A DNA stretch of 64,000 nt from Rubripirellula sp. (GCA_965216875.1 OZ244207.1:6464001-6528000), one strand, 5' to 3'. Shown: positions 31,607 through 51,864, counted from the first letter of the stretch. Notes: generated by a model from the letters alone, not told the origin. Numbers and translations are program-made.

Positions 31607-33880
31607 TTAGACACCCAACGTTTTAGTGCTGTCTTGGCGAGCGTCGATCGGCTCGATGGTCACTGCGCAATCCTTGTAGCTCGGTTGACGGCTATAGGGA
31701 TCGAAATGTCGCAGCGTTAGTTGATTGGTTTGGTCGTAGTGCATCGGCATAAAGGCTTGGCCCTTGGCGACAGTTGGCGAAATCAATGCATTGGCAATCG
31801 TCTCCCCACGACGCGAACGGATACAAACTTCTTCACCATTGGCGACGCCCATCTGGTCGGCATCGTCAGGATGGATTTCGATGTATGGTTTGGTCGGATA
31901 AAGCTTGCGAAGCACAGGGCTTTTGCTGGTCCGTGTTTGTGTGTGCCACTGGCTTGCCGTTCCGCGTCCCGTCAAAAGCAAGTACGGGTAGTCGTCATCG
32001 GGCGATTCCGGCATCGGTGTGATGTCATCAACGATCAACTTTGCTTTACCGTCGGCGTGATAGAATTTGCCGTCTGCAAAGAGGCGTCGTTGTTGTTCCG
32101 GTTCCGCTCCGCCTTTGGCTTGTTCGGCACTCCAAGGCCATTGCAGTCCGCCCAGTTTGTCGATTTGTTCGTAGCCATTGACGCCGGTGATGTCACAGGG
32201 CTGTCCTTCGCTTGCCCGTTGCATGATCCGAAAGACCGCCTCGGGATTGGTCCACTCGGCAAACATGTCGCCGACGCCCCAGTAATGGGCGATGCCTCGG
32301 AAAATATGGAAGTCGGCCAGGGCTTGTCCCGGTGCGGGGCGAACCTTCTTGAGCAGTCCGTATCGCCGTTCGCTGTTGATGAAGGTTCCTTCCTTTTCAC
32401 CCCATCCAGCGGCTGGCAAGATCAGGTCAGCTTGTTCGGCAGTCTCGGTCGAGTCGTACATGTCTTGCACGACCAGGAAATCAAGTTGCTCGATCAATTC
32501 GTGGAAGTCGCCCTGGTCGATCCAGCTATGTGCGGGGTTGGTGGCGATGACCCACAAGCCTTTGATTTCACCGTTGCGAATGCCGTCGACGATTCGGTCG
32601 TAACTCCAACTGCCTTCGGTCGGGATGGTTTCGACATCGATGCCAAGGACGTCGGCAACCTTTTGGCGATCCGCTTCGCTTTCGAATTTGTGATGCCCGA
32701 ATAGGTTCGTCGTGTTGCTCCAAAGTCGCGAACCCATCGCGTTGCATTGACCGGTAATGCTGTTGGCACCCGTTCCCGGCTTGCCAATGTTCCCGGTGAT
32801 CAAGGCAATGTTGATGATCGCTTGAGCCGTCCGCGTCCCCTCGTAGCTCTGGTTGACACCCATCGTCCACCACAGCGAGGCTGCGTCGGCGTCGGCAATG
32901 GTGTCGGCGGCGCGACGGATGGTGTCGGCAGGGATGCCGGAGGTTTCGGCAACCGTTTCGGGGCTAAAGCTTTCGACGTGTTGGCACAGTTCGTCAAAGC
33001 CCGTCGTGTTGGCATCGACAAACGCCCGGTCGACTTTGCCCGATTGGATGATGTGATGAGTGATCGCGTACAGCAGCGCCAAATCAGACTTTGGCTCGAT
33101 CTGCAAATGTTGGGTCGCTGCCATCGCCGTTTCGGTTCGGCGCGGATCAATGACAATGATCTCGGGAGATTTTTCGTTTCGCAAGACGCGTTCCCACATG
33201 ATCGGGTGGCCGATACAGGGGTTGGAGCCAACGAACACGATGCAATCGCTTTGTTCGAAATCGTCATAGGTGTATGGCGGTGCGTCAAAGCCGAACGATT
33301 CTTTGTAGGCCGTCACGGCAGTGGCCATGCATTGACGTGTGTTTCCGTCGCCGTGCTTGATGCCCATGCCAAATTTGGCGACCGCACCAAGCATCGCCAT
33401 TTCTTCGCAGGGGATTTGGCCAGTGCTTAGGAAAGCGATCGAGTCGTTGCCATGTTCGGCCTGGATCGCTTTCATCTTGGACGTGAACAGCTTGAACGCT
33501 TCATCCCAAGAAACGGCTTTGCGTGTTCCGTCACTTTGTCGAACAAGTGGCTCGGTTGCCCGGTCGTCGGCTTCCAGCACACGCAGCGCTTCCCAGCCTT
33601 TTGGACAGGCCATGCCGAGGTTGACGGGATAGGCTGTCTCGGGAGTTAGGCCGATGCCTTCGCCGTCGCGGACGTGCAATCGCAAGCCGCAACCGGTCGC
33701 GCAAAAGCCGCAAGCCGCAGTGGTTGTGGCGTCAGCCTGCATCGACTCATGCGTCATTCCCAAGCCGTGTTCGCCGGGATGCAACAGAAGTTCGCGCGTC
33801 ATTTTGCCGTCACGTTGCTGGAGCAACTGTGGCAACTGGACCGATTTGCGAGATTCGTTTGGCGTCAGTGTTTGGCTCAT
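31607..33880 (-). CDS. nasA: Assimilatory-type molybdopterin nitrate reductase catalytic subunit (NasA/NarB-like)
   Basis: CGFCATGC...CPKG [4Fe-4S]; [37 protein letters not shown]; no Tat motif. Confidence 0.9.
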
Positions 33881-35601
33881 CGCAGCGTCCCCGGCATTCG
33901 GTCGTAAACCACGCTGCTGAAATACAACAGCCTTTCAAATCCCTCGCCGACGGCAAGTGTCAATGCACCGCCGATCGCCAATGGCAACGCTAGCGAAGGC
34001 AACGCGATCACCGAGACCGTTGCGGCAATCAGAAGCCCGAGCGATGCGAGTCCCATTGCGATGCGAGTCTTGACCAGTGGCTTGAGTTCCCGAGCAACCA
34101 GAGCGCGGCTGCGGCGATCGTAGTCGTCGCCTCCGATCCCGCCGGTAGGCTTGAATTGCAATCGGTTTTCCCAGTCGAGTTTGATTCCCAAAGCCGCGAC
34201 GCCAACGATCAACGCGATCGCTGTTAGCGGGCTCGATGCTTGAGCGTAGATCATTGCGACGGCGGTCCAGGCTGCACCGGCAGCGAGCGTTGTTCCAAAG
34301 AACCGCTTCAAGGTTCGTGAGTGACGCCATAGCACTCGCTTGGTTGCGATGTAAATCATCGCACTGCAGTACAACCCAGCGACACCAAAGAGAATCGATG
34401 TGCCAAGCAAAGCCTTGGCAACCCAGGTTGGGACCCAAGCATTGACCGTTTCGGCAAGGCCTTCGCTGATCACAGGCAACCACAGGAGTCCAACGGCAAG
34501 GGCAAGGATCCCGGCGAACTTCCCAAGCACCACCGCTTCGCGGCTAAGCCAGCTTGTCCGAAGTCCGAGGAAGATGCGCCAGGACCGCAAAGGTTGTCCG
34601 AGGTGCATCGGTGCAAGGTTCAAACCAATCGCAGCGATGACAAAGGCGACAAGTGCATTGATACGGGTCGCCATGATCGGCATCTCTTCGCCGCCGAACC
34701 AAAGGATTGAAGCGGCGATCCGTTCAATCAACAACATCCCGACAGAGATTTGAGTTCCAACCAACATCAGGGCGAGTGGCCAATGGTCTTCGGCCACCTC
34801 GTCGACACCTTGGTCGTGCGGTTGAGCGTCGAGGAACGCTTCGACGTTGCCCGATGGGCTGGCATAGTTGGTCGTTGGCTGGGTGATGTCTGAGGGTGCA
34901 GTTCCCGGCGCGACTTGAGCGGGGAATTGTGCGACTTCGTTTTCGTCGACGATTTGAATCGAGATCGCTTCGTTGGGACACGATTGAACACATGCGGGTG
35001 CTTCGCCCACACTGAGCCGTTGGTGACACATGTCGCATTTGCGAACGATCCCAAGTCGATCGCTGTACTGTGGCACTTCGTAGGGGCACATCATCGTGCA
35101 GTACTTGCAACCAATGCACTGGTCGTCCAAGTGACGGACGATGCCGGTTTCGGGATCTTTGTCGTACGCTTTGACGGGACATCCGCTCAAGCAGCCTGGT
35201 TCGACGCAGTGATGACAAGCGGAGGTGACGTGTTGGATTCGCGATTCCGGCTGGCCGATGGTCACCGTGCCGACACGCCGCCAGCTTTCGTTCTCTTCCA
35301 GCCCGTTCATCGTGTGACAGGCAACCACGCAGGCTTTACAGCCACTGCATGCGTCAAGGTCAACGCGAAAGGCGTACTGTTGCCCTGGTCCAGGCGCGGT
35401 CGCGGGCAACAAACTGCGATAGTACGCCGCTTGAGCCGGCTCTTGTTCAGGAAGGTCGCCCGCATCATGCAACGCACTAAACCGCTCGACCGCAGTCAGC
35501 GTTTGCTGCTCGGACAATAACATTTCGACCAAATCGAACTTGGGCTCGTTCGATGCGTCGTCGCTATGTTGATCGGTTGGTGAAGGGAGCGTTGTGGACA
35601 T
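33877..35601 (-). CDS. DmsB/NrfC-type 4x[4Fe-4S] domain fused to a DmsC/YnfH-type membrane anchor
   Basis: [59 protein letters not shown]; about 8 TM helices; 4-nt overlap with nasA. Confidence 0.88.
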
Positions 35602-35607
35602 GAGTTC

Positions 35608-36525
35608 CTAGAAGTACAGCGCGGTGACACTTGCTAACTTGTCGCCATCAAAGAAAGGAATGGCCAACCCGCTTGTTGGTTTGGTCGGCAATTCGCCTAG
35701 CGTTCGGCCCGCAGCCAGACGCTCGGGATCATCCGTCAGAGCCGCAGCACCGCGAGATGCGGCGAGTCCCGGCAAGCCGGCATCGGCCGGCAACGTCGTC
35801 TGTTCAGGCAGCGCGAACGGAGCACCGGCGTCGCTGAACGCACCGCCGACCAACGAAAAGCCAGCATCGGTGACGTTCCAGACTTCCATGGCTTGGGCAA
35901 GTGGCGAGACGGCAGAACTGATCAGCAAGACCGAGCTATGGAAGTTGTCCGATGCGATCGGAATACCAATCGCGGTTTTGAGCAATTCGGCCGATGCACC
36001 GGCGGCTCGCAGGAACCCAGGATGGTTTGGCAGGTCGTCGTGAATCACACTCGAACGCTGTTGCCAAACTTGGCCAGGCAGTCCGTTTCCTTTTTCGAAA
36101 CGAACGAAGGAGCTCACGTTCTGGAAACGCTCCATGCGGCCATAGAAGCCAGCCTTGAGCGAAACTTCTTCGTAGATGCCGATGGGTTCCCAAACTTCGA
36201 AGACGCCGACAACGTTGTCTTGGCCGTCGCAAAGCTTCTTTGATGAAAGGACAACGACCGAAACGATTTGTCCGCTACGGTAAACCGGTATCGCGATCGA
36301 CGCCGAAGCGTCCGAAGGAAGCGATCCTGCGTCGGTGCACACTTCGGCCGAGCCCGATTGGATCGCTTTTTGCGCGATCGATTCGGCCGGCGCGCCGATG
36401 GCGCCCGCGATTTGGTTATCGGCGATGTCATAAACATTGACATCGCACAAGAACGAATTGGATGGTAACGAGGAAATAGACAAGAGATCGAAAAACCGGG
36501 AACGAGGGAGGGGGCCGATTGTCAT
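35608..36525 (-). CDS. Stand-alone GAF-like repeat protein
   Basis: Repeated GLPGQVWQ..AIGIPI and GLPGLAAS..GLAIPF units; no output domain recognised. Confidence 0.7.
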   Translation of the reverse strand: MTIGPLPRSRFFDLLSISSLPSNSFLCDVNVYDIADNQIAGAIGAPAESIAQKAIQSGSAEVCTDAGSLPSDASASIAIPVYRSGQIVSVVVLSSKKLCDGQDNVVGVFEVWEPIGIYEEVSLKAGFYGRMERFQNVSSFVRFEKGNGLPGQVWQQRSSVIHDDLPNHPGFLRAAGASAELLKTAIGIPIASDNFHSSVLLISSAVSPLAQAMEVWNVTDAGFSLVGGAFSDAGAPFALPEQTTLPADAGLPGLAASRGAAALTDDPERLAAGRTLGELPTKPTSGLAIPFFDGDKLASVTALYF

Positions 36526-39810: not shown

Positions 39811-41301
<1,491 letters not shown>

Positions 41302-41420
41302 GGGAGGCAACCTTACGTTCGTGGGGTGCAAAAGTCATTGGGTGTAATACCTCTTGCGAGCCGCCACTGCCGAGGTTGCAACATTCCCGACCGGTGCTCG
41401 GAAACGTTACAACGGGCCTA

Positions 41421-41440
41421 AATGCAACAGCCGTGCCAAA
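41421..41440 (-). promoter_or_regulatory. sigma54 -24/-12 promoter of the nrt-nas-nir unit
   Basis: Minus strand TTGGCACGGCTGTTGCA matches TGGCAC-N5-TTGCA exactly. Confidence 0.85.
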
Positions 41441-41560
41441 ACCACTTTGAGAGTTTTCTTTCGCATTCGCGAAGCGTGTTGATTCCGCCCCAGTGCGCAA
41501 CAATGTGAACCTTCCCCACCTTGTTGCTGAACATTCATCTCCGTTTCTTTTCCAAAGACC

Positions 41561-41615
41561 CGCTGGTTCATTGGGCAGCTGCCTGAGAATTAGGCGAGTG
41601 CCGAAAATCCGCGCA
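41561..41615. promoter_or_regulatory. Three 17-bp GC-N11-GC boxes (NtrC-like enhancer)
   Basis: CGCTGGTTCATTGGGCA, TGCCTGAGAATTAGGCG, TGCCGAAAATCCGCGCA, about 120-175 bp upstream of the -24 element. Confidence 0.5.
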
Positions 41616-41785
41616 ACTGCGGTAGGGGTGGCAAGGTAGGTTGTGGGGTAGTGCCCGTGAGCCCCCGGACGTGAGGCCTCGGGCGCGGCCCCGTTGGCAC
41701 GGTTTTGTGCCGTGTTAGGGGCCCAGCGTTCAGGGCCAGGGCGCTTACGCTTTACATGACCGCCAGGATTCACGGCCTTTCCCGC

Positions 41786-41913
41786 GCTCCAACAATCACC
41801 CTCCCGCTTGCGGGAGGGTCGGACGCAAAGTCCGGGGAGGGAACGATCTCAAATTATGCAACCCTCTCCGGGCCTTAGAGCCCGACTCTCCCAAGGGAGA
41901 GTGTTGACATGCG
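41786..41913 (+). repeat. Repeat family A, full copy (~125 bp, multi-hairpin)
   Basis: Nearly identical to 57051-57170 apart from a variable middle. Confidence 0.9.
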
Positions 41914-41919
41914 CAGTTT

Positions 41920-42345
41920 CTAGCCCGCAGCGCGTTGCGACTCGTGCGCTGCTTTGAGCATCACCGTGCTCAACGTGGTGTAGGTCTCCGTCCAGGCTTC
42001 TTTCACCTCCTCGGTAAAGTCGTCACCAAGACCTTGTTCGAGCGTCCACAACAAGGCGGCTCCTACGGTTTCGTAACTGTCGTCCGGGACACCGTAGCCG
42101 ACGTGCCGGCGACCAAGGTCTTCCACCGCCGGAATGATCGATTCGAGTCGGGTTAAGGATGTGACAGCGAGGTTCAAAGTGGCCATTAGCTTCTTGCCCT
42201 GCTCACTCATGTCTCCTTTGAAGAGCGATTGGAGCGAGGGGTCGAGGGTAAAGAGCCGGCCGTAAAAGAGTTGTGCGGCTTGCTCGGAGATGGGTTTGAC
42301 CTTTTCCCAGCTGGTTTGGACCAATTCAATTTGTTCGGGGGTCAT
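41920..42345 (-). CDS. Single-domain globin (Vgb / flavohaemoglobin-globin-like)
   Basis: MTPEQIELVQTSW, FYGRLF, LGRRHVGYGV, YETVGAALLWTLEQGLG, AW. Confidence 0.93.
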   Translation of the reverse strand: MTPEQIELVQTSWEKVKPISEQAAQLFYGRLFTLDPSLQSLFKGDMSEQGKKLMATLNLAVTSLTRLESIIPAVEDLGRRHVGYGVPDDSYETVGAALLWTLEQGLGDDFTEEVKEAWTETYTTLSTVMLKAAHESQRAAG

Positions 42346-42470
42346 TGGGTAGTTCTCTCGTTGGAGGGATCAAAGTGGTAAGGCGATTCGTTAGGAGCGA
42401 ATCAACTCGAAAGGATTGGGGGACCGGCATCCATGCCGACGCGACATCCCTGTTCGTTCATGCCAATCCA

Positions 42471-43112
42471 TTAAGGAAGGGGAACACGGACGAGGACGCC
42501 CCCCATGACGTCATCCTTGCCAAACTCTGGATAGTCATCACCGCGATTGGAGTGATCGTTGTGGCAACTCCAGCAAGCTTCGGCGACAGCTCGGTCGGGA
42601 TAGACCGCGACGAAGTAGTTTTTGCCACCGAGCGTTTCTTCGCCGTAAAAGTTCTCGCCGGGGTTGTCGCTCAAGAAATCAAGCGCCTTGGTCTCGAACT
42701 CGCTCTTCGGTTTGTGCTGTTCATTCAATGGCCACTTGCTGCGCAGTGAATAGGTGAAGCCAGCTTCCGGGTTTTCATCGACGAGCTCGGCGCCCATCCG
42801 GAACATTTGTGCCGGAAGCGGGATCGCGTTGTCCGTGTCGGACCAGTACTCGTCGGCGGTGACCGGAGCGTCCTGTTTCTTGAGATTTGTGACGACATGT
42901 TTGGCGTAGACCGTTCGGTCAGCCATCATCACGGCATGCACGCCATCGGCAAACATGCGTGGCGTGATACCAGCAGGCGGTGTCGACGACGCTTCCGAGG
43001 AACTGCAACCGGTCAGCATAAGGGTGGTCAGGACGATGACGACGCAAAGGCCGCCCACGCATTGTTCGATCTTGAACTCGCGTGATGCCGGGCGTTCGAA
43101 GAGACGGTTCAT
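42471..43112 (-). CDS. Exported monoheme c-type protein, DUF3365/Tll0287-like, probable lipoprotein
   Basis: Lipobox LTGC; LPAQMFR; CWSCH; DVMGGVLVRVP. Confidence 0.8.
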   Translation of the reverse strand: MNRLFERPASREFKIEQCVGGLCVVIVLTTLMLTGCSSSEASSTPPAGITPRMFADGVHAVMMADRTVYAKHVVTNLKKQDAPVTADEYWSDTDNAIPLPAQMFRMGAELVDENPEAGFTYSLRSKWPLNEQHKPKSEFETKALDFLSDNPGENFYGEETLGGKNYFVAVYPDRAVAEACWSCHNDHSNRGDDYPEFGKDDVMGGVLVRVPLP

Positions 43113-43277
43113 AGTAGGTTTCTTTCACTTAGGTTGAGGGATCATGTTCGGTTTTGTTGACGCGAAGTCGTTCGCGGTACCAGCTCTCGCCAGAATCCTT
43201 CGGCAGGAAGTCAGTACCGCGAACCTTCGCATGCGATCGTTGCAATTACGGTGGGTGCATCGTTTTTCGGTTCACGT

Positions 43278-44717
43278 TCATTTCCCCGTGTTCGACTTTT
43301 CTCGAGTCCGCTTGCGCGCCTTGCGGGCCTGTTCTTTCAGCTCGAACCAGTCGTGAGCCATCCGCACACTCTCGTTTCGCTCAAGCGGAACGTCGGCGAA
43401 ACAGGAGTCAACGAGTTGGGGGTCCGAAAGCGCGCTCAACGAATACTCAAGTCCGTGGCAGTGCCCACAAACTTCTCGAGCCATCGTTTCGTTGGGCCGC
43501 AGGTTTGCGTTTTGGTCGTGGTTGACCCACACATCCCCGTCCTTTTCCAGACGTGGCATGTGGCAAGTCGCACAACTGACTCCGCTGCCAGCTGGAAGCT
43601 CGCCAGCAAGCTCTTTGTTCCAGAGATCTGCGTGAGCTGTGGTGTCGTAGGCGATCGTGTGTGCGTCGGCATGACACTGTTTGCAAGCACCAACGGATGC
43701 CCACTCGGTGTCAAATCGATGCCCGCCATGGCAACTGTTGCAAGTCAGCTCTCGATGGGCCGAGTCGGTGTGCATCGGCAGCCGGGCAAGCGATGGTGAC
43801 ATCGGCGAAAGGCCGACTGCCAATCGCATCCCGTGGCGACCGGTGACAAAGGACTCGGTTTGCGCTTCGTGACATTGACCACAGGCGTCCATCGAAACCG
43901 CATCGGACCAGTCTTTGGATTCGACGTCCGCGTGACAGGCACTGCAATTCACACCGGCAGCGGCGTGAGCCGTGCTGGCCCAGTCGTCAAGGATCGATTG
44001 GTCAAGTTGCTGATCGGTCGGACCGTCGTGTTGATGTGCTTGGAGTGATTGATCGTTGGCCTGTTTGGACTCCTTCCCTACTAGGGATGAGTCCCACGAC
44101 GTGAGGAAATTGCGAAGGGGAACGCGCGCTTCGGCAAGGTGATCGCTTTGTCCGAAGTGATCGTTGAGGTATTTCTCGTAGAGCGCACGATTGTCGTGGT
44201 AATTGTGACATCCAGCCGTCGAGCAACTGGTGTAAGAAAGGTCTGCGTGGCTCGGTCGGGAGTCGGCGACATCTTGATGACAGTGCCAGCAGTAGTCGTT
44301 GGGGACGGTTAGACCCATGGCCGAGGTTTGTTCGGGAACATGTTCCCGATGACACGTCAAACAGTTTTGTGCATCAAGCACAAGCAGCATGTCGGCGTTG
44401 GTCGGATCGTTGAATTTTTTGGCAGGATGCGTGTCGCTGGCGATTCGTAGTTGGTCGGCATGGCATCGATTGCACGCGTCCTGCATCACGGCGCCGACGG
44501 CCCCGGCGGCCGATTGGTCTTCCATCGCAGGCGCATGACAAGCATTGCAATCCAATTCGATTTGGTAATGACCGTGCGTGGTCTTGCCCGGCAGGAACGT
44601 GGTTTTGATCGATGATGCAGGTGCCAACAGCGCGTAGCTAAGGTAGCCTGCGATCACGAGGTTCAGGACCAACCAAGTTGTCCAACTGCGAGCATGTTTG
44701 CGAAGCATCGTTTCCAT
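43278..44717 (-). CDS. Membrane-anchored/exported multiheme cytochrome c (10 CxxCH + 1 CX4CH)
   Basis: CNACH, CNRCH, CLTCH, CWHCH, CSTAGCH, CSACH, CGQCH, CNSCH, CKQCH, CATCH, CGHCH; N-terminal hydrophobic helix; start follows the upstream stop at 44723. Confidence 0.9.
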   Translation of the reverse strand: METMLRKHARSWTTWLVLNLVIAGYLSYALLAPASSIKTTFLPGKTTHGHYQIELDCNACHAPAMEDQSAAGAVGAVMQDACNRCHADQLRIASDTHPAKKFNDPTNADMLLVLDAQNCLTCHREHVPEQTSAMGLTVPNDYCWHCHQDVADSRPSHADLSYTSCSTAGCHNYHDNRALYEKYLNDHFGQSDHLAEARVPLRNFLTSWDSSLVGKESKQANDQSLQAHQHDGPTDQQLDQSILDDWASTAHAAAGVNCSACHADVESKDWSDAVSMDACGQCHEAQTESFVTGRHGMRLAVGLSPMSPSLARLPMHTDSAHRELTCNSCHGGHRFDTEWASVGACKQCHADAHTIAYDTTAHADLWNKELAGELPAGSGVSCATCHMPRLEKDGDVWVNHDQNANLRPNETMAREVCGHCHGLEYSLSALSDPQLVDSCFADVPLERNESVRMAHDWFELKEQARKARKRTREKSNTGK

Positions 44718-44722
44718 CACCC

Positions 44723-46765
44723 TCAGTCGCTGAACCAGTAGAAACTGAGAATGTGAAACGCAATCAGCAGCGGCAATGGCCAGAACAGCCAGAGGTGCAA
44801 ACGCGTCAGTCGGGGCCGCCAACATCGCAGCAGCATCGCCCACGATCCCTCCAATCGTGACTCGATGCTGCTGGCGATGCCGGCAAGCGTCCCGAAGATG
44901 GCCGTTCCAATGAAGACCAGCGAAAGAACCAAATTCAAGTTCTCGCCAAGGCGAAAGCCGGTATGCACGGCGATCGCAACAATGGCGGCTGTCCCCAAAA
45001 TGGCGTGTACGGCACGCCATAACCCATAGCTTCCAAACTGAAATCGGCTGATGCGTTTTCGCAGCGAGAAGATCATCCCCACAAGCATCAAACCGAGAAG
45101 CGTGAATCCGCTGAACTGACGCGCCACATCATCGCGCCAAAGCCAATCGATTTTTCGGTGTCCGTCGCGAACGCTTTCGGCCAGTGGGATAGGCGATGCG
45201 AGGATCAAGCCCACCAACAAGATCAAGCCAACGATCGAAGCAACCAGAACGGGTGTCGCGGCGGGTACTCGCGTCCCTTCCGATTTCTGCCCGGCAAGTT
45301 CGCATACTAACGATCGACAACTTCCGCACGCCGTTGATGCACCTGTGGTCTCGGCGAGTGCGTCCGGGCACGTCGTGCCGGCGGCAACCAAGTTTGCTAG
45401 CGCACCTTTGGTGACAGCGCGGCACGCGCAGACAATGCTTGATGCGGGCCATTGGGTTACCGAAAGCGTTCCGGTTTCTGGCCAGGGATTGCCAGTCAAT
45501 CGGAATCGCCGACGATGCCACGGCCACAATCGCGTCTGCCGGTGCACGGCCTGTCGAATCTGTGGCAACTCTTTCCATTGTCCGACACTTGCTGCGCCGA
45601 CGACGCAACCTTGATGAAGGATCAATTTGCGATAACAGTTGTCGGCCTTGAAAGTCAGCGTGATTCCATCCGGTTCGTCACCGATGGCGCGACCAAGCGC
45701 CGCAACGTCAACGCCAAGCAGCTTCAGTTCGGCCGACTCATCGGCACCCTCGAATGTTTCGTCGCCGCCAACGAGACGCGAAGCCAAGACATCCGCCATG
45801 CGGTAACAAGGAGCAACCAAGCCATACACGTGATCTCGGAAGCTTGCGCACTCACCGATCGCATGAATCGTTGGGTCACTGGTCGCAAGGTCCTCGGCAA
45901 TGGAAATTCCGCCACGCGGACCCACATCAAGTCCACACTCTCGAGCCAATTCGTCGTTCGGAATGACGCCCGCTGCAATGATCAAGATGTCGGTTTTGAG
46001 CGGTTTTGCATTGTCGAATCGAATCTCAAGTGTTTTGTCGTCCGTGGCCGCGATCGATCTGGCTCGACGCGTCAAATGAACATCTACTCCCAACGTTTCA
46101 ACGCGTTCTTTCAACAGTTCAGCGGCGCGCCAATCGAGTTGTCGTGGCATCAACCGGCCAGCCATCTCGACAACACTTGTTTGCAGTCCGAGATCAAAGA
46201 GGACTTTGGCTGCTTCCAATCCGAGCAGACCGCCTCCCATCACGACTCCGATCTTGGCCCGCCTTTCACGGACAAATTCGCCGATTCTCTCGAGATCGTC
46301 TAAAGTTCGATAAACGAAAACGCCCGGTTGATTGGCACCTTCGAGTTTGGGCAGGCGGGCACGCGAGCCGGTTGCCAAGACAAGCTGGTCGTACGGATGG
46401 ACATTCGCCTGGTCGTCAATGATGCAGCGTTGCTGGCGATCGATCTTGACGATCCGACGGCCAGTATGAAGTGTGATCTGATGGGTTTCGTACCAATCGG
46501 AGTCCGCAAGTTCGAGGGATTTGGGCGAACTGCCTTGCAAGCACTTTGAAAGATTCACCCGGTCGTAGGCAGGTGTTGGCTCTTCGCCAAAGATCGCGAC
46601 ATGAAAGTTGTCGATCGCGTTGCTTGAAACCAAACGCTGGCACAACCCATAACCAGCCATCCCGCCACCAACGATCAATAGTCGTGGCAAGACGCGGCTC
46701 GGGCGCACAGTCGAATCGTACGTCGATTGACTTGGTTGCGATGCAGCTTCGGTTGCGACAGCCAT
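44723..46765 (-). CDS. NirB-like FAD/NADH oxidoreductase + BFD [2Fe-2S] + C-terminal membrane domain (putative di-heme b)
   Basis: IVGGGMAG, YDRVNLS, LATGS, GGGLLGLEAA, AIGECA, LKLLGVDV; CAC..CGSC; ~5 TM helices with two His-x13-His pairs; no siroheme domain. Confidence 0.85.
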   Translation of the reverse strand: MAVATEAASQPSQSTYDSTVRPSRVLPRLLIVGGGMAGYGLCQRLVSSNAIDNFHVAIFGEEPTPAYDRVNLSKCLQGSSPKSLELADSDWYETHQITLHTGRRIVKIDRQQRCIIDDQANVHPYDQLVLATGSRARLPKLEGANQPGVFVYRTLDDLERIGEFVRERRAKIGVVMGGGLLGLEAAKVLFDLGLQTSVVEMAGRLMPRQLDWRAAELLKERVETLGVDVHLTRRARSIAATDDKTLEIRFDNAKPLKTDILIIAAGVIPNDELARECGLDVGPRGGISIAEDLATSDPTIHAIGECASFRDHVYGLVAPCYRMADVLASRLVGGDETFEGADESAELKLLGVDVAALGRAIGDEPDGITLTFKADNCYRKLILHQGCVVGAASVGQWKELPQIRQAVHRQTRLWPWHRRRFRLTGNPWPETGTLSVTQWPASSIVCACRAVTKGALANLVAAGTTCPDALAETTGASTACGSCRSLVCELAGQKSEGTRVPAATPVLVASIVGLILLVGLILASPIPLAESVRDGHRKIDWLWRDDVARQFSGFTLLGLMLVGMIFSLRKRISRFQFGSYGLWRAVHAILGTAAIVAIAVHTGFRLGENLNLVLSLVFIGTAIFGTLAGIASSIESRLEGSWAMLLRCWRPRLTRLHLWLFWPLPLLIAFHILSFYWFSD

Positions 46766-46905
46766 AGGCGGAGGGAGAACCCATGCAAGGGCGCAGTTGC
46801 CGCCTTCAACTGATGTTATTCATGTAATGGGCCAAGCTGTCGGGATCGCAGACAACGTTTGCAACCGCTCACGCAAACGTTGTTAAAGCGAGCCGGAATG
46901 CAGGT

Positions 46906-46923
46906 AATGCAACCGCCGTGCCG
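46906..46923 (-). promoter_or_regulatory. sigma54 -24/-12 promoter of the oxidoreductase-cytochrome-globin unit
   Basis: Minus strand TCGGCACGGCGGTTGCATT, nearly the same as the nrtA promoter. Confidence 0.8.
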
Positions 46924-47053
46924 AAACGGATTCGGATGTCGTCTCAAGATCGTCTGTCGCCGGAACGAAGAGCGCAACCGTCAGTCATGGGCGCGATCCG
47001 AGCCACAGAGCGGTGTGAATTAGAAAATGTCAGTGCTCAAAACTAAGCCTGAG

Positions 47054-47091
47054 TGCACGTTAACTTTGCACGGTTGCGCAATCGTTAGGCC
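47054..47091. promoter_or_regulatory. Two 17-bp GC-N11-GC boxes (NtrC-like enhancer)
   Basis: TGCACGTTAACTTTGCA and TGCGCAATCGTTAGGCC, 21 bp apart, about 130-170 bp from the -24 element. Confidence 0.5.
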
Positions 47092-47369
47092 GCTGAAGAG
47101 GCCAAGTGCTCGTTGACTAGGCAAACTTTGCCGATTGCGACGTTCAGCCCGCTTTTCAGGGCCAGCTCCGAGAAACGAATCGCGAATACCGCAGGAATTC
47201 GCAACGATTTCGCCACGATCTACCGATGCATGAAAAACATCGCCTCAATCGGCGAGCGTACGATCGCACGATGGATTGTGTGTTTTTCAGGCGGTGAGCG
47301 ACACAGAATCCATGTTGCTGCGACGAAATCGATAGAGAAGAACAAATCCAGGAAGGGAGTCTCACTGCC

Positions 47370-48971
47370 ATGCGCGTTAAACGAACACGCCGCCGGTGGA
47401 TTGTGGCCGCGGCCATTTCCGCTGGTTTCTTCGCCAGCCCTGTGCTGGCATACGACGGAGAGGGAGGCGATGCAGCGCTTCAACCTGTCCCACTCGAAGA
47501 CCCATCCGCTTCCGACCAGGTTGTTGATCAACCTGTCGTGATGGAAGAGGAAGCCGAAGCGGTCGCGATTGCCGAACCGGTCGCATCCGTACCTTGCAAT
47601 TGCTGCAACAGCTACTGCTGCACCAAGAAGAAGAAGGAAGCGGCTACCGCAAAGATGAAAGGTGCCTACAAAGGCGTCTTCTATCAAAACGACTATAGCT
47701 ACCTCAATGACCGCTGCTACGATGGCCCCAGCTTCCTGGGCGATCGTCTGAAAGGTCTCCACTGTGGCAAACTCGACATTGGTGGCGAAGCACGCGTTCG
47801 TTTCCACAGCGAGAACAACCACCGTGGTCTCGGTCTGACCGGACGCGATGACCGCTTCTGGTTGACACGTGTTCGCGCGTTTGCCAACTACCGCGTCACC
47901 GAGAACATTCGCGTTTACGCTGAATACCTCTACGCCGACTCGGGCGGGGAAACGTTCAACAATCGACCGATCGAAGAAAACCGCGGTGAGTTGCAAAACG
48001 CACTCGTTGACTTGCAGCTAACCGAGCGTTTGTCGACTCGAATTGGTCGTCAAGAACTGCTCTACAGTGCACAGCGATTGGTTTCGCCGCTGGACTGGGC
48101 CAACACTCGTCGCACCTTCGACGGTGTTCGCGGAATCTACAAGGGCGACACCTGGACGCTTGATGGGTTCTTCGTGCATCCCGTGCGTCGTACAGCTGCT
48201 TTCGAAGACAAGATTGACAAGACCAATAACGACATCGACTTCTGGGGCATCTACGCCACCAGCGACAAGTACGAAATCGGTTTGGTCGAAGGCTACTACT
48301 TGGGTCTGAAGCACGACATCTTGAACTTCGATTTCCACACCTTTGGAAAGCGAATTTCGGGAACAAGCGACCGAGGCATCATGTATGACCTCGAAGGTGG
48401 CTTCCAAGTTGGCGAAAACAGCAACGGTTCAAGTCACGGCGCTTTCTTCTCGACCACTGGTTTGGGCAAGAAACTCAGCATCTGCACTCGATGCGGCGAA
48501 TGGAACCCAATCGTCTGGTTCTTCTACGATTACGCTTCGGGCGAGAAGGATTTCAACCAAGTCGGTGTTGGCGACGATGGCTTCCATCACCAATTCCCAC
48601 TGGCTCACAAGTACAACGGTTTCATGGACTTGTTCGGACGTCGTAACTTGCACGACATCAACGCACAGTTCATCACTCCGATCTTGGGATCGAAAGTCAA
48701 GTTGCTGCTGTGGTACCACTACTTCCGATTGGCAGAGCGAACCACGCCATACAACGTGAACATGACTCCGTTCAACACCGTGGCTGCTGCTGGAAGCCGT
48801 GACCTGGGTCACGAGATCGACGTGTTGTTCAACATCAACCTCAACCCACGTAACAACGTTTTGGTTGGTTACTCGTTCTTCAGTGCTGGTGACTACTACG
48901 ACACCACACCAGGTGTTCCAACCAACGCTGACGCAGACTTCTTCTACATGCAGTATCAAACTCGCTTCTAA
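47370..48971 (+). CDS. Alginate-export (AlgE)-family outer-membrane beta-barrel porin
   Basis: Signal peptide; RIGRQELLY..QRLVSPLDWANTRRTFDG; DYASG; FPLAHKY; DLGHEID; terminal F. Confidence 0.85.
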   Translation: MRVKRTRRRWIVAAAISAGFFASPVLAYDGEGGDAALQPVPLEDPSASDQVVDQPVVMEEEAEAVAIAEPVASVPCNCCNSYCCTKKKKEAATAKMKGAYKGVFYQNDYSYLNDRCYDGPSFLGDRLKGLHCGKLDIGGEARVRFHSENNHRGLGLTGRDDRFWLTRVRAFANYRVTENIRVYAEYLYADSGGETFNNRPIEENRGELQNALVDLQLTERLSTRIGRQELLYSAQRLVSPLDWANTRRTFDGVRGIYKGDTWTLDGFFVHPVRRTAAFEDKIDKTNNDIDFWGIYATSDKYEIGLVEGYYLGLKHDILNFDFHTFGKRISGTSDRGIMYDLEGGFQVGENSNGSSHGAFFSTTGLGKKLSICTRCGEWNPIVWFFYDYASGEKDFNQVGVGDDGFHHQFPLAHKYNGFMDLFGRRNLHDINAQFITPILGSKVKLLLWYHYFRLAERTTPYNVNMTPFNTVAAAGSRDLGHEIDVLFNINLNPRNNVLVGYSFFSAGDYYDTTPGVPTNADADFFYMQYQTRF

Positions 48972-49071: not shown

Positions 49072-50943
49072 TTACTTCAGGCCAACGCTCAGCCAACCGC
49101 TCGAGGCGTCCACCAACGCCGTTTCGAAGACACGGCCACGCAAGGATTTGATTCTTGCTTCCTGCGAAATCTCCATCGAACGGTCGAGCAAGGTTTCGGG
49201 AAAGACCTTGCTGAACTTGGTTTGGATCGCTGGCTTCAAGCCTGCCTGTGTGACGGTCAAGCGTTTGCGTCCGGGGAAGTTCACTTCGACTTCGCCATCA
49301 CGGACCAGGATGAGCTTGCCTTCTTCGGTAGACGCGACTTGATAAATCGCGGTGATCTCCATCGAGCGTTTGAGTTCGCGCCGCCCTTGAGTGAATTTTG
49401 TCCCGCGGACACCGATGCGGATTTTCTGGTCGCGAGCTTCGAACACAATCGGTTGCAAACTTGCAAAGCTGATTTCGAACGACGGCTCGGTAGGTTCGCC
49501 CTCTTTCTGAGGTGAGGACATGTCGCGACCCACCGCCTTCATCAAGCGATTGAGTTGGCTTTCCTTGAGCGTTCGTCCCGCCAGAACAGGGCTGAACGCG
49601 TTGTTGATCACCGACTCGTGAACTTGGAACAAGGCTCCGAAATCGGCATCGACGTTCGGTGGGGAGACAACCGTCGAAAGTTGGTCGCCAGTTCGAAACA
49701 CCGAATCGACACTTACCCAATCGCTTGTCGACGTCCATGCGCGCGACGGCTCGGAAAGGGACAAGCGTTGCAGAAGCGACCTCAGGTTGTCGAGCCGTCC
49801 GGGAGGTCCACCCGCCAAGGCGTCGTCGGTTCGTTGCGTGAAGTTGTCGGCAACTTGTCGACGCATTCTCGACAGCGCGATGCGATCGGCGCGAGGCTTC
49901 TGCTGTGCTGCTTTCTTGCGAGCGATGTTTCGAACCAACCGCATCTTGTGTTCGATCGCACGTATGTCGGTTCGCAATGCGGCTTGAACTTGTGTGGGTT
50001 CCATGTGAACGCCCGAATCATCAAAGTTCACGATTCGCGTCGCCGTGACGTCACCGCAGCCAACGGTGCGAAGACGCACCGGTCCGTTGTAACCGGTGTT
50101 GTTGCTGGTCACCGTGCCAGCAAGCGATACCTCAAGACGAACGCTACCGGTTGCTGGAAGCAAGTCGGCCGAGACCACACCGTTCATGGTCGCTTGTCCA
50201 ACGATCCGAGTGCCCAAGATGCAGTCGTAAACCGGACGGGTTTGAACGACGTCTTGGTGAACGGCTTCTTGTACCAGACCTTCGCTAATCAAGATCGCGA
50301 CATTGGGATGGTCAAACGTGTTGCGGACCGCGGTGATGGCGCCGGGGGCTTGCCCCGACGAGTGAATCGAAGCAACCAATGCCGAAATCGCTGCAATGTC
50401 GCCGGACGAAGGCGAAGCATCGAGCTGGCTGATGCGGCTTGCCAACGATTCAAGTTGTTTGCTGATCCCTTCGATTGCCTTTTCTTTGTTGCGAAAGCGA
50501 AGTGAATCAATCAGCTGTGAAAGGTTGTCACGCAGTTTCGTAAGCGGTTCGAGCTCGAGCCCCTCGTGGGTTCCGATCAGCCGATATCGCAGTGCCACCG
50601 CTTCACGACCAATCACCGGTACTTCACTACCTTCGGTGAGTGCTTGGTGAAGCGGATCAAGTTCCAAGTAATCAAGCCAAGATTGTTCGTTGTCGCCAGA
50701 TGTGTTCGTGCCGAAGAAAGACTTGACCGCTGAAATCTGATCCAGCACGAGTGGGCGGGCCGATTCGTAGTCGGGAAGCCGCGAAGCATCCAAGTCGGTC
50801 GCTGCCGCCTTGATTTCGGCCACCATTTGCTCACGTTCGGCGTCGGTCAACGTTGCTGCGACCGGTTGGCAGCAGGCAACCGAGAACAGGCCGGCTGCGG
50901 CAAGCAAAGCAATGGGGGAACGAAAAAGTGAATGCAAAGGCAT
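49072..50943 (-). CDS. Exported hypothetical protein
   Basis: 623-aa ORF with a signal-peptide-like N-terminus. Confidence 0.75.
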   Translation of the reverse strand: MPLHSLFRSPIALLAAAGLFSVACCQPVAATLTDAEREQMVAEIKAAATDLDASRLPDYESARPLVLDQISAVKSFFGTNTSGDNEQSWLDYLELDPLHQALTEGSEVPVIGREAVALRYRLIGTHEGLELEPLTKLRDNLSQLIDSLRFRNKEKAIEGISKQLESLASRISQLDASPSSGDIAAISALVASIHSSGQAPGAITAVRNTFDHPNVAILISEGLVQEAVHQDVVQTRPVYDCILGTRIVGQATMNGVVSADLLPATGSVRLEVSLAGTVTSNNTGYNGPVRLRTVGCGDVTATRIVNFDDSGVHMEPTQVQAALRTDIRAIEHKMRLVRNIARKKAAQQKPRADRIALSRMRRQVADNFTQRTDDALAGGPPGRLDNLRSLLQRLSLSEPSRAWTSTSDWVSVDSVFRTGDQLSTVVSPPNVDADFGALFQVHESVINNAFSPVLAGRTLKESQLNRLMKAVGRDMSSPQKEGEPTEPSFEISFASLQPIVFEARDQKIRIGVRGTKFTQGRRELKRSMEITAIYQVASTEEGKLILVRDGEVEVNFPGRKRLTVTQAGLKPAIQTKFSKVFPETLLDRSMEISQEARIKSLRGRVFETALVDASSGWLSVGLK

Positions 50944-51234: not shown

Positions 51235-51864
51235 TCAGGGCAACGGCGTCTGGAAACTCAAGGCATCGCACAAGCGAGTCAATGCGGGGTCGAAATCCTC
51301 ATTCTTGCCATGCGTCCAGACCTCTACCAACAGATCGATGTCGCCATCGTTCATCCGGCCATAAAGTCGGCTCGTGTGACGGAAGATGGGGTCGTTGGGA
51401 TCAAGCCAATCGATTGCGACCTGGTCATATCGCCGTGTGACGACATCGGCGTCTAGCAGAGGGGTGTCGCTACCGGTCGGCGTGGTGTCGGCGTCGCCGG
51501 TTTGTTCGAGCGTCTGGGATTCGTCCTGGTTGAGTTTGCTCAGGTCGACTTCGCTCTTCAGCGGTGGCCACTGCTTGAACAGGAAGGGGCGGATTCGGAC
51601 GATCAGATTGGATGATTCGCAGACGTAAGTGACACGCCGCGCTTTGTGGTCTTTTGCGGTTGCAAGAAGCGTCCAGCCATCGCTTGGTGCGACGGAGATT
51701 CCGAGGGACTGGAACGAGACCGATTCACCGGATCGGCGAACGATGTCGACTCCTTGCGGTTCATCATTTCCTCGAAAACCGTAGTACCCAAGCATCAGGA
51801 TGACGCCGATCGTGATCAGCGTCATGGGCGAAAGTTCGATAGGAGGCCGTTCGGGGCGATTCAC
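51235..51864 (-). CDS. Membrane-anchored hypothetical protein
   Basis: 209 aa with one N-terminal TM helix; follows the cyclase gene. Confidence 0.65.
   Translation of the reverse strand: MNRPERPPIELSPMTLITIGVILMLGYYGFRGNDEPQGVDIVRRSGESVSFQSLGISVAPSDGWTLLATAKDHKARRVTYVCESSNLIVRIRPFLFKQWPPLKSEVDLSKLNQDESQTLEQTGDADTTPTGSDTPLLDADVVTRRYDQVAIDWLDPNDPIFRHTSRLYGRMNDGDIDLLVEVWTHGKNEDFDPALTRLCDALSFQTPLP

Follow-up and report, generated by a model that had tools for sequence, protein, structure and literature searches.

The 64,000-nucleotide (nt) stretch of Rubripirellula sp. DNA analysed here (GCA_965216875.1 OZ244207.1:6464001-6528000; hereafter the window) is part of an 8.26-Mb planctomycete chromosome. 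At 41920-46765 on its minus strand it carries four genes, all in the same orientation, which are discussed here as a module that may conduct electrons from cytoplasmic NADH to the periplasm. A co-oriented set of four genes had been proposed in an earlier reading of this DNA (hereafter the sequence-only reading). The arrangement was borne out, with domain matches for the fusion protein, the lipoprotein and the globin. The genes, the domains of the fusion protein and a putative promoter element are as follows.

44723-46765, minus strand: flavo-FeS-cytochrome b fusion gene (680 residues)
45536-46684, minus strand: NirB-type two-dinucleotide-binding reductase domain for flavin adenine dinucleotide (FAD) and NADH (fusion residues 28-410)
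45305-45436, minus strand: BFD-like [2Fe-2S] domain (fusion residues 444-487; PF04324)
44726-45283, minus strand: five-helix membrane tail with a predicted dihaem b site, H587, H601, H657 and H671 (fusion residues 495-680)
43278-44717, minus strand: 11-haem cytochrome c gene, product probably anchored at its N-terminus (479 residues)
42471-43112, minus strand: gene of a Tll0287-like / sCache_haem c-haem lipoprotein (213 residues; PF11845, lipobox, CWSCH)
41920-42345, minus strand: single-domain globin gene (141 residues; PF00042)
46909-46922, minus strand: putative sigma54-type -24/-12 element, cGGCAC-N5-TTGCA, about 145 nt upstream of the fusion start

The cytochrome gene directly adjoins the fusion gene, as had been stated; its ATG lies 5 nt past the fusion stop codon, not 6 nt as given before. 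The two other gaps, in front of the lipoprotein gene and of the globin gene, measure 165 nt and 125 nt.

The reductase domain of the fusion protein matched Pyr_redox_2 (E 1.8e-51), Pyr_redox and Rubredoxin_C, and the domain behind it matched Fer2_BFD (PF04324) at 30 bits against a cut-off of 26. Fusion residues 29-491 aligned with positions 1-465 of the 794 positions of the NirB model TIGR02374, at 442 bits, which is under the cut-off of 578. A Pfam scan of the fusion gave no match to PF01077 or PF03460, so that the sirohaem/[4Fe-4S] domains of NirB were not found. Since the TIGR02374 match is limited to positions 1-465, the fusion corresponds to NirB's reductase half, the sirohaem half being absent. 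In an alignment of 72 full-length fusions from Planctomycetota, Verrucomicrobiota and Omnitrophota, the ligand cysteines of the [2Fe-2S] cluster (C446, C448, C480 and C483) and both Rossmann glycine motifs were invariant. Residues 495-680 are hydrophobic; together with the Pyr_redox_2 and Fer2_BFD matches, this agrees with the NADH/FAD oxidoreductase with a membrane tail that had been described. Parts of the module are annotated as 'FAD-dependent oxidoreductase', 'nitrite reductase [NAD(P)H]', 'cytochrome c3 family protein' and 'ammonia-forming cytochrome c nitrite reductase'.

The membrane tail was compared in six orthologues, which share four invariant His, two per helix on two helices, with 14 residues between the members of a pair. 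These four His were also invariant in the 72 full-length fusions, in 73 tails from genome and metagenome loci, and in 143/143 further representatives at 50% identity. The AlphaFold2 model of the tail (predicted local distance difference test (pLDDT) 93.7, predicted template modelling score (pTM) 0.88) consists of five long helices and one short amphipathic helix. An invariant RKR-rich loop fits the cytoplasmic side in the model; one His of each pair would therefore lie near each membrane face. The best structural match among membrane proteins was the dihaem cytochrome b561 CybB (5oc0; Z 10.6, root-mean-square deviation (rmsd) 3.2 Å over 130 residues), and further matches at Z 8.5-10.3 were a designed two-haem bundle, hydrogenase-1 cytochrome b, FdnI, cytochrome b561 and Dcytb. 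Such helical-bundle Z scores suggest a relation of the modelled tail to dihaem cytochromes b without settling it. Pfam matches of the tails were weak: DUF4405 and PF01292 were each found in 3/6 tails, with best E-values of 0.004 and 0.0056. No match to PF01794 was obtained at E<=0.01 with the fusion or at E<=5 among the six tails, and DUOX1 was among the Foldseek matches of the tail at E 0.7. In one study, DUF4405 proteins were found to bind haem b and were proposed as transmembrane electron carriers (PMC11334425).

In a profile search with the tail against 1.84 billion representatives, 1317 proteins reached E<=0.001, of which 416 reached E<=1e-30. Among the 150 of these 416 that were listed, the tail was C-terminal in all; 143 were new identifiers, of which 67 have the length of the fusion (650-699 residues). 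Eleven members of other lengths were scanned with Pfam and ten gave a match, always including a BFD domain. Forms of about 225 residues consist of BFD and tail in four of the five scanned; three long forms are NirB-type; in three other long forms, BFD and an FNR-type FAD/NAD module stand behind cyclic-nucleotide-binding (cNMP) or EF-hand domains. The tail thus follows BFD in the 72 aligned fusions and in the matched members, usually with an NAD(P)H flavoprotein, which is of two unrelated folds. This constant placement behind BFD and NAD(P)H-flavin modules provides independent support for a role of the tail in electron relay. It should be noted that many of the short entries may be fragmentary metagenome genes. 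A cluster look-up in the Atlas gave, as a lead only, a BFD-bearing cluster of 229 residues (score 0.86).

The count of 11 haems in the cytochrome was confirmed. Its haem motifs are ten CxxCH and one CX4CH, all invariant in 67 homologues, the eleventh being a plain CxxCH in one orthologue; 11 non-motif His are likewise invariant in this set. The AlphaFold2 model (pLDDT 81.6, pTM 0.80) begins with an N-terminal membrane helix, followed by a less confident five-haem part and a confident C-terminal part. Since Pro follows the possible cleavage site, the N-terminal helix is likely an uncleaved anchor. The C-terminal part superposed on Kuenenia hydroxylamine oxidase (HOX) 4n4j (Z 6.3, rmsd 3.8 Å over 187 residues), Ignicoccus octahaem protein (IhOCC) 4qo5 (Z 6.3), Nitrosomonas HAO 6m0p (Z 6.0) and octahaem nitrite reductase (ONR) 8rv0 (Z 4.8). 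With NrfA 6v0a / 1qdb (Z 4.2), the matched model residues were 260-443, which hold the last five haem motifs. Because its last five to six haems fall on the core of HAO, ONR and NrfA in the superposition, the C-terminal half may be catalytic, and a catalytic role of the cytochrome is possible on the basis of the model. The seventh haem (C279-H283) is a candidate for a haem that lacks a distal His. Profile matches to PDB were local (E 4e-9 to 1e-6), and a Foldseek search of the model against PDB gave nothing at E<=0.001. The cytochrome has no family-level match in Pfam or NCBIfam, no CxxCK motif and no PF02335 match at E<=0.01, and is not an NrfA by that definition. The undecahaem proteins of the literature (UndA; OccP, 922 residues) are unrelated to it. 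In the Atlas look-up some cytochrome clusters were labelled Pseudomonadota, which is a lead only.

The C-terminal half is as similar to oxidising HAO enzymes as to reducing ones. It is therefore conceivable that electrons flow inward, with the cytochrome oxidising periplasmic hydroxylamine, nitric oxide (NO) or Fe(II) and the electrons reducing NAD+. This is extremely improbable in our view, because such a transfer would be uphill, against the membrane potential and to the NAD+/NADH couple (-320 mV), unless it is driven, as follows from established bioenergetics. No pump or quinone site was evident in the domain scan.

The lipoprotein matched PF11845 (Tll0287-like) at 67 bits against a cut-off of 24.1, and its LTGC lipobox and CWSCH motif agree with the CxxCH lipoprotein reported before. 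Among 78 orthologues, CxxCH, a His three residues past it and three Tyr are invariant, and two Met are kept at 94% and 97%. Only the two motif Cys are present in 62/78 orthologues, and apart from the motif and lipobox residues no Cys is conserved. The axial His/Cys pair of Tll0287 itself is therefore not kept, and conserved Met and His are candidate haem ligands instead of Cys. A sequence search of PDB found no relative of the lipoprotein. A 2026 preprint defines the Tll0287-like family as haem-c Cache domains (bioRxiv 10.64898/2026.02.01.703092). It reports that a stand-alone Cache_haem member behaves as a redox protein and binds NO weakly, that Cache_haem domains fused to signalling modules sense NO, and that the stand-alone genes are without informative partners, their role being an open problem.

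The NO sensing described for the fused domains (10.64898/2026.02.01.703092), together with a GAF protein and putative sigma54 control nearby, could mean that the module is a sensor. Periplasmic NO or redox state would then be read out by the cytochrome and the lipoprotein, and the flavoprotein would only poise these two. We consider this very improbable. No signalling output domain was found by Pfam in the four proteins, none is conserved beside them, and eleven haems and an NADH reductase would be costly for a sensor. The stand-alone forms are, moreover, assigned a redox role in the same preprint.

The globin matched PF00042 at 61 bits and has, in its 141 residues, a globin fold without a reductase domain, in accordance with the single-domain assignment. 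Its nearest structures are from Methylacidiphilum (3wfw, E 1e-31; 3s1i, E 2.5e-30; and 3ubc; range for the three E 1e-31 to 1e-29). Neuroglobins are next nearest, and Vitreoscilla haemoglobin and flavohaemoglobins are more distant. The globin is thus closest to the Methylacidiphilum HGb and neuroglobin types, not to Hmp. Since the globin has no signal peptide, it should be cytoplasmic.

Conservation of the module and its tie to nitrate assimilation

The module is rare. The tail was found at strong E-values in 6/401 sampled genomes of the phylum, where five more weak partial matches were other proteins, and in 14/301 genomes of the order; a related-locus search with a single tail gave one locus. 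Eighteen loci were obtained from other genomes, of which one (L023) ends just past the fusion, leaving 17 informative. The cytochrome and lipoprotein genes directly follow the fusion gene in 17/17 of these. The globin gene is next in 12/17. It is missing from the four loci of a single genus and from one further locus, and a search of four of these five genomes did not find it at any other place. Metagenome loci were fetched by the cytochrome profile alone (the best 80 of 427 confirmed), and counts were made over loci with enough flank. The fusion is immediately upstream of the cytochrome in 73/74, the lipoprotein lies within 600 nt downstream of it in 52/57, and the globin is present in 37/43. 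At loci away from nas genes, the flanks of the module are unrelated from locus to locus, and the module is therefore self-contained. Its core is the fusion, the cytochrome and the lipoprotein, with the globin as a frequent extra. The expected co-conservation was thus found, and the four-gene unit of the sequence-only reading stands as a three-gene core, the globin being dispensable in some lineages.

In one genus, the module is preceded by a gene for a SoxA/TsdA-like dihaem cytochrome c, which adjoins it in L029 (7127-7984, plus strand) and is located two open reading frames (about 2.2 kb) before it in L013 (5697-6560, plus strand).

The module had also been claimed to be driven by sigma54, from a TGGCAC-type promoter nearly identical to that of nrtA. 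The element upstream of the fusion reads GGCACGGCGGTTGC (46909-46922, minus strand), and the matching element before nrtA, outside the module and found by pattern match, reads GGCACGGCTGTTGC (41424-41437, minus strand). The motif about 145 nt upstream of the fusion, cGGCACggcggTTGCA, has one mismatch to the TGGCAC-N5-TTGCW consensus. GGCAC-N5-TTGC has four matches in the window, two of which are the fusion and nrtA elements; in a shuffle control the mean was 0.98, and four matches were reached in 2/100 shuffles. The two promoter cores are identical at 22/24 aligned bases, which upholds the near-identity. The putative element has the GG at -24, the GC at -12 and the spacing of sigma54-dependent promoters, and rpoN is encoded in the genome (369 bits, over the cut-off). 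The strict pattern is found upstream of the fusion in 7/18 genome loci (window included) and in 4/35 metagenome loci, against 0.013 expected per 380 nt. By this measure the pattern is enriched upstream of the fusion but far from universal. Sigma54 control thus holds up as a proposal for this locus, and as a recurrent feature only for a minority of relatives. An NtrC-type activator gene adjoins the module in one locus (L018).

Downstream of the module on the same strand are nrtABCD and the genes of a GAF protein, an FeS-DmsC fusion, NasA, NirA and a CysJ-like flavoprotein. Besides the window, nas/nrt genes are present in 10/18 genome loci and in 17/27 metagenome loci of at least 10 kb; a frequent co-oriented row is FeS-DmsC, NasA, NirA, flavoprotein, fusion, cytochrome, lipoprotein and globin. 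NasA was found at E<=1e-100 in 124/301 genomes of the order; nine of these have only 32-37% identity, which leaves 115 with an orthologue. The orthologue is present in 13/14 genomes with the module vs 102/287 without it; since the genomes are related and not independent samples, no statistics were applied to these counts. The co-occurrence with nas/nir genes that had been anticipated was thus observed. The module is nearly confined to nitrate assimilators and most assimilators are without it; it would therefore be an accessory, not a donor needed by NasA.

The same counts bear on the possibility that the fusion is the NADH donor subunit of nitrate reductase, of the Klebsiella NasC or Bacillus NasB type, with the tail anchoring it beside FeS-DmsC/NasA and the cytochrome genes as passengers. 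The fusion directly follows nasA in one genus (L024-L027), one homologue is annotated 'Assimilatory nitrate reduc...', and NasA in the window has an unusual FeS-DmsC membrane partner. As set against this, a NasA orthologue occurs without the fusion in 102 genomes of the order, and the cytochrome follows the fusion in 73/74 and 17/17 loci whether nasA is near or not. Forms with BFD and tail exist without any nas context, and four invariant His would be unexplained in a mere anchor. We therefore regard a donor subunit of NasA as improbable.

The genus just mentioned has the row nasA-fusion-cytochrome-lipoprotein without nirA, and a NirA orthologue was not found in it. The idea that the module replaces nitrite reductase there was dropped, because a NirB-NirD fusion is encoded elsewhere. 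In this genus, NirB and NirD are fused in one open frame (L037, 1-2613, plus strand, and three sister genomes).

A less likely explanation than nitrogen oxides, though one of some weight, is that the same conduit from NADH to the periplasm serves another substrate, such as ferric iron or other metals, periplasmic protein repair, or oxygen as in NOX enzymes. The proximity to nas genes would then reflect co-regulation or a demand for iron or haem, not chemistry. Such a role would suit the 8/18 genome loci and 10/27 long metagenome loci with no nas gene near, and also a cytochrome in which all 11 haems may be bis-His. It does not fit well with the distribution of NasA (13/14 vs 102/287), nor with the location of the module inside nas/nrt operons in many lineages and the promoter element in common with nrtA. 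The tail occurs in combination with several kinds of NAD(P)H module, among them EF-hand and cNMP FNR-type ones that recall NOX5/DUOX regulation; on the other side, the globin accompanies the module in most loci and the C-terminal half of the cytochrome resembles the HAO/ONR/NrfA core. Two published observations favour the other substrates: DUF4405, PepSY and MsrQ relatives act in iron reduction and protein repair (PMC11334425), and stand-alone Cache_haem bound NO weakly (10.64898/2026.02.01.703092).

Proposed path of electrons

We propose that the four genes encode a quinone-independent conduit from cytoplasmic NADH to the periplasm, where an N-oxide (nitrite, NO or hydroxylamine) would be reduced during nitrate assimilation. 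To this proposal as a whole we assign a probability of about 0.5; an electron conduit as such, whatever its substrate, is likely. The order NADH/FAD, [2Fe-2S], two predicted b-haem sites and periplasmic multihaem protein agrees with the path drawn in the sequence-only reading, and the ligands are invariant. An N-oxide is preferred as the substrate because the module is tied to nas genes and nas-bearing genomes, has a promoter element in common with nrtA and is accompanied by a globin.

In the proposed path, NADH would reduce the FAD of the fusion, and electrons would pass from FAD to the BFD [2Fe-2S] cluster, located about 20 residues ahead of the first membrane helix and tethered there at the surface of the membrane. 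The cluster would reduce the haem b on the cytoplasmic side (H587/H657), which would in turn reduce the haem b on the periplasmic side (H601/H671). From this outer haem the electrons may enter the 11-haem cytochrome, with its N-terminal helix packed beside the tail. The end point could be a catalytic haem in the HAO/NrfA-like half of the cytochrome, or else the Cache_haem lipoprotein, and the N-oxide would be reduced there; the lipoprotein may be a terminal carrier or itself the substrate site. In the cytoplasm, the globin would handle NO or O2, possibly being kept reduced by the same flavoprotein. Since electron export with proton consumption outside dissipates the membrane potential, the role of such a path would be assimilatory or protective (detoxifying), not respiratory.

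Several points weigh against this proposal, in which haem b binding, the substrate and the nitrogen control of the module are all deduced from sequence. The six tails stay under the Pfam thresholds (DUF4405, 16.8 bits against a cut-off of 26.7), the Foldseek search of the tail model against PDB gave nothing at E<=0.001, and generic helical bundles (talin, Z about 12) outrank cytochromes b in the tail search via the exhaustive aligner. The structural matches of the cytochrome to HAO and NrfA are modest (Z 4-6), with a Foldseek E of 0.015 at best. The 11 extra His could allow all haems to be bis-His, which would make the cytochrome a mere wire. The known active sites of NrfA and HAO are such that 11 His fit equally well with ten bis-His haems and one His in a catalytic pocket; the count of His therefore cannot decide between wire and catalysis. 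The strict sigma54 pattern is missing in 11/18 genome loci and 31/35 metagenome loci. The 8/18 genome and 10/27 long metagenome loci apart from nas genes have unrelated flanks, and most nitrate assimilators are without the module (the 102 NasA-positive genomes lacking the fusion). All such counts come from genomes that are related to each other. In addition, the cluster already has a cytoplasmic NirA and a flavoprotein, and a second nitrite route is not obviously needed.

Neighbouring genes and sequences

One further feature lies divergently upstream of the module.

47370-48971, plus strand: alginate-export-family outer-membrane porin (PF13372, E 1.9e-55)

A homologue of this porin is present in 16/44 related loci of at least 10 kb, and in seven metagenome loci it stands between nrtD and the fusion, directly upstream of the latter. 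The porin is a recurrent neighbour, possibly accessory to the module, and a candidate nitrate/nitrite channel. Since barrels of this (AlgE) type are narrow, the idea that it forms a porin-cytochrome conduit was set aside. Upstream of the porin are two open reading frames without a Pfam match, of 623 residues (49072-50943, minus strand) and 209 residues (51235-51864, minus strand).

Several GC-rich palindromic stretches, which could be a terminator or repeats, are located at 41780-41920 between the globin stop codon and the nrtA promoter. A simple scan of 41300-47400 for sigma70 promoters and terminators gave nothing useful. The GAF-domain protein (305 residues; 35608-36525, minus strand) is encoded between nrtD and the FeS-DmsC gene, and its place is kept in relatives at 25-43% identity. 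NasA (31607-33880, minus strand) is of the assimilatory type and has no Tat signal. Before it lies the gene of a 574-residue fusion (33877-35601, minus strand) of a 4Fe-4S dicluster (DmsB-like) domain and a DmsC-like anchor, and the pair is kept in relatives. Their sequences suggest that NasA and FeS-DmsC form a membrane-anchored and possibly quinol-fed assimilatory nitrate reductase.

Comparison with known systems

No description of the fusion or the module was found in the full-text literature searched, a search outside which most subscription journals lie; to that extent the statement that this is not a characterised pathway was supported. If the proposal is true, electrons would run through the fusion directly from NADH in the cytoplasm to c-type cytochromes in the periplasm, independently of quinones; the described pathways of electron export mostly run via the quinone pool or flavinylated carriers. 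It would also give stand-alone Cache_haem proteins their first functional context and add a periplasmic step to nitrate assimilation, a pathway usually depicted as taking place entirely in the cytoplasm. There would further be a bearing on the release of NO, hydroxylamine and N2O by abundant marine and soil heterotrophs.

NirB (TIGR02374) and the fusion have the FAD/NADH domains and the BFD [2Fe-2S] domain in common. In the fusion, the catalytic sirohaem/[4Fe-4S] half of NirB is replaced by a five-helix, His-bearing membrane domain, and some relatives that bear the fusion encode a genuine NirB-NirD elsewhere. The modelled tail resembles CybB (PF01292) and DUF4405 in its four-helix bundle with two His pairs, but it remains under the thresholds of these families and has an additional first helix. 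The tail is also covalently joined to its own NADH-FeS donor, whereas the known relatives use quinol or flavinylated partners.

The cytochrome is periplasmic, as are NrfA, ONR, HAO and HAO-like reductases, and the end of its model superposes on their multihaem core (Z 4.2-6.3). It differs from them in having 11 haems and an N-terminal membrane anchor, and its predicted donor is NADH via the fused cytochrome b, not quinol via NrfH, NrfBCD or CymA. The lipoprotein shares PF11845, the conserved CxxCH and the stand-alone architecture with Tll0287 and the stand-alone sCache_haem proteins. It has, however, fixed genomic partners, which the preprint describes as missing for this class.

The NasC-Flp-Bjgb operon of Bradyrhizobium serves nitrate assimilation and NO detoxification. 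As at the present locus, a single-domain globin and an FAD/NAD(P)H reductase stand there with assimilatory nitrate-reduction genes. The operon is, however, not known to include a membrane cytochrome b, a multihaem cytochrome or a Cache_haem protein, and the globin described here is closest to Methylacidiphilum HGbRL/HGbI and neuroglobins.

NOX/DUOX enzymes and the FRE ferric reductases pass electrons from NAD(P)H via FAD and two haem b across the membrane. The predicted logic of the fusion is the same, namely a cytoplasmic flavoprotein joined to a dihaem membrane domain that exports electrons, and some members of the tail family carry EF-hands or FNR-type modules. P0261, P0298 and P0383 (863-1013 residues) combine a cNMP-binding or EF-hand domain, BFD, an FNR-type FAD/NAD module and the four-His tail; their regulatory layout is similar to that of NOX5/DUOX, with the domain order reversed. 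The fusion likewise differs from NOX/DUOX/FRE in having the dehydrogenase first, and this dehydrogenase is NirB-type, not FNR-type, with an additional [2Fe-2S] relay. Its tail has five helices with two His pairs and no PF01794 match, whereas PF01794 has six helices with His pairs on helices 3 and 5. The fusion is predicted to reduce a multihaem cytochrome c instead of oxygen or iron.

Electron export by NAD(P)H flavocytochromes b and periplasmic multihaem N-oxide enzymes are thus both already known; new is the combination of dehydrogenase type, FeS relay, tail fold, c-type acceptor and Cache_haem partner. As a wider and tentative suggestion, which we put at somewhat less than even odds, BFD-[2Fe-2S] with the four-His tail may mark an unrecognised, widespread class of quinone-independent exporters from NAD(P)H to the periplasm. 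This class would be a bacterial counterpart of NOX made of other parts. In planctomycetes, verrucomicrobia and further groups it would power a so far unknown periplasmic N-oxide reduction, whose enzyme would be an 11-haem relative of HAO/NrfA with Cache_haem as its partner. If the main proposal is true, the BFD-tail unit would stand out as a portable module, which nature has combined with regulatory domains and with more than one kind of NAD(P)H dehydrogenase.

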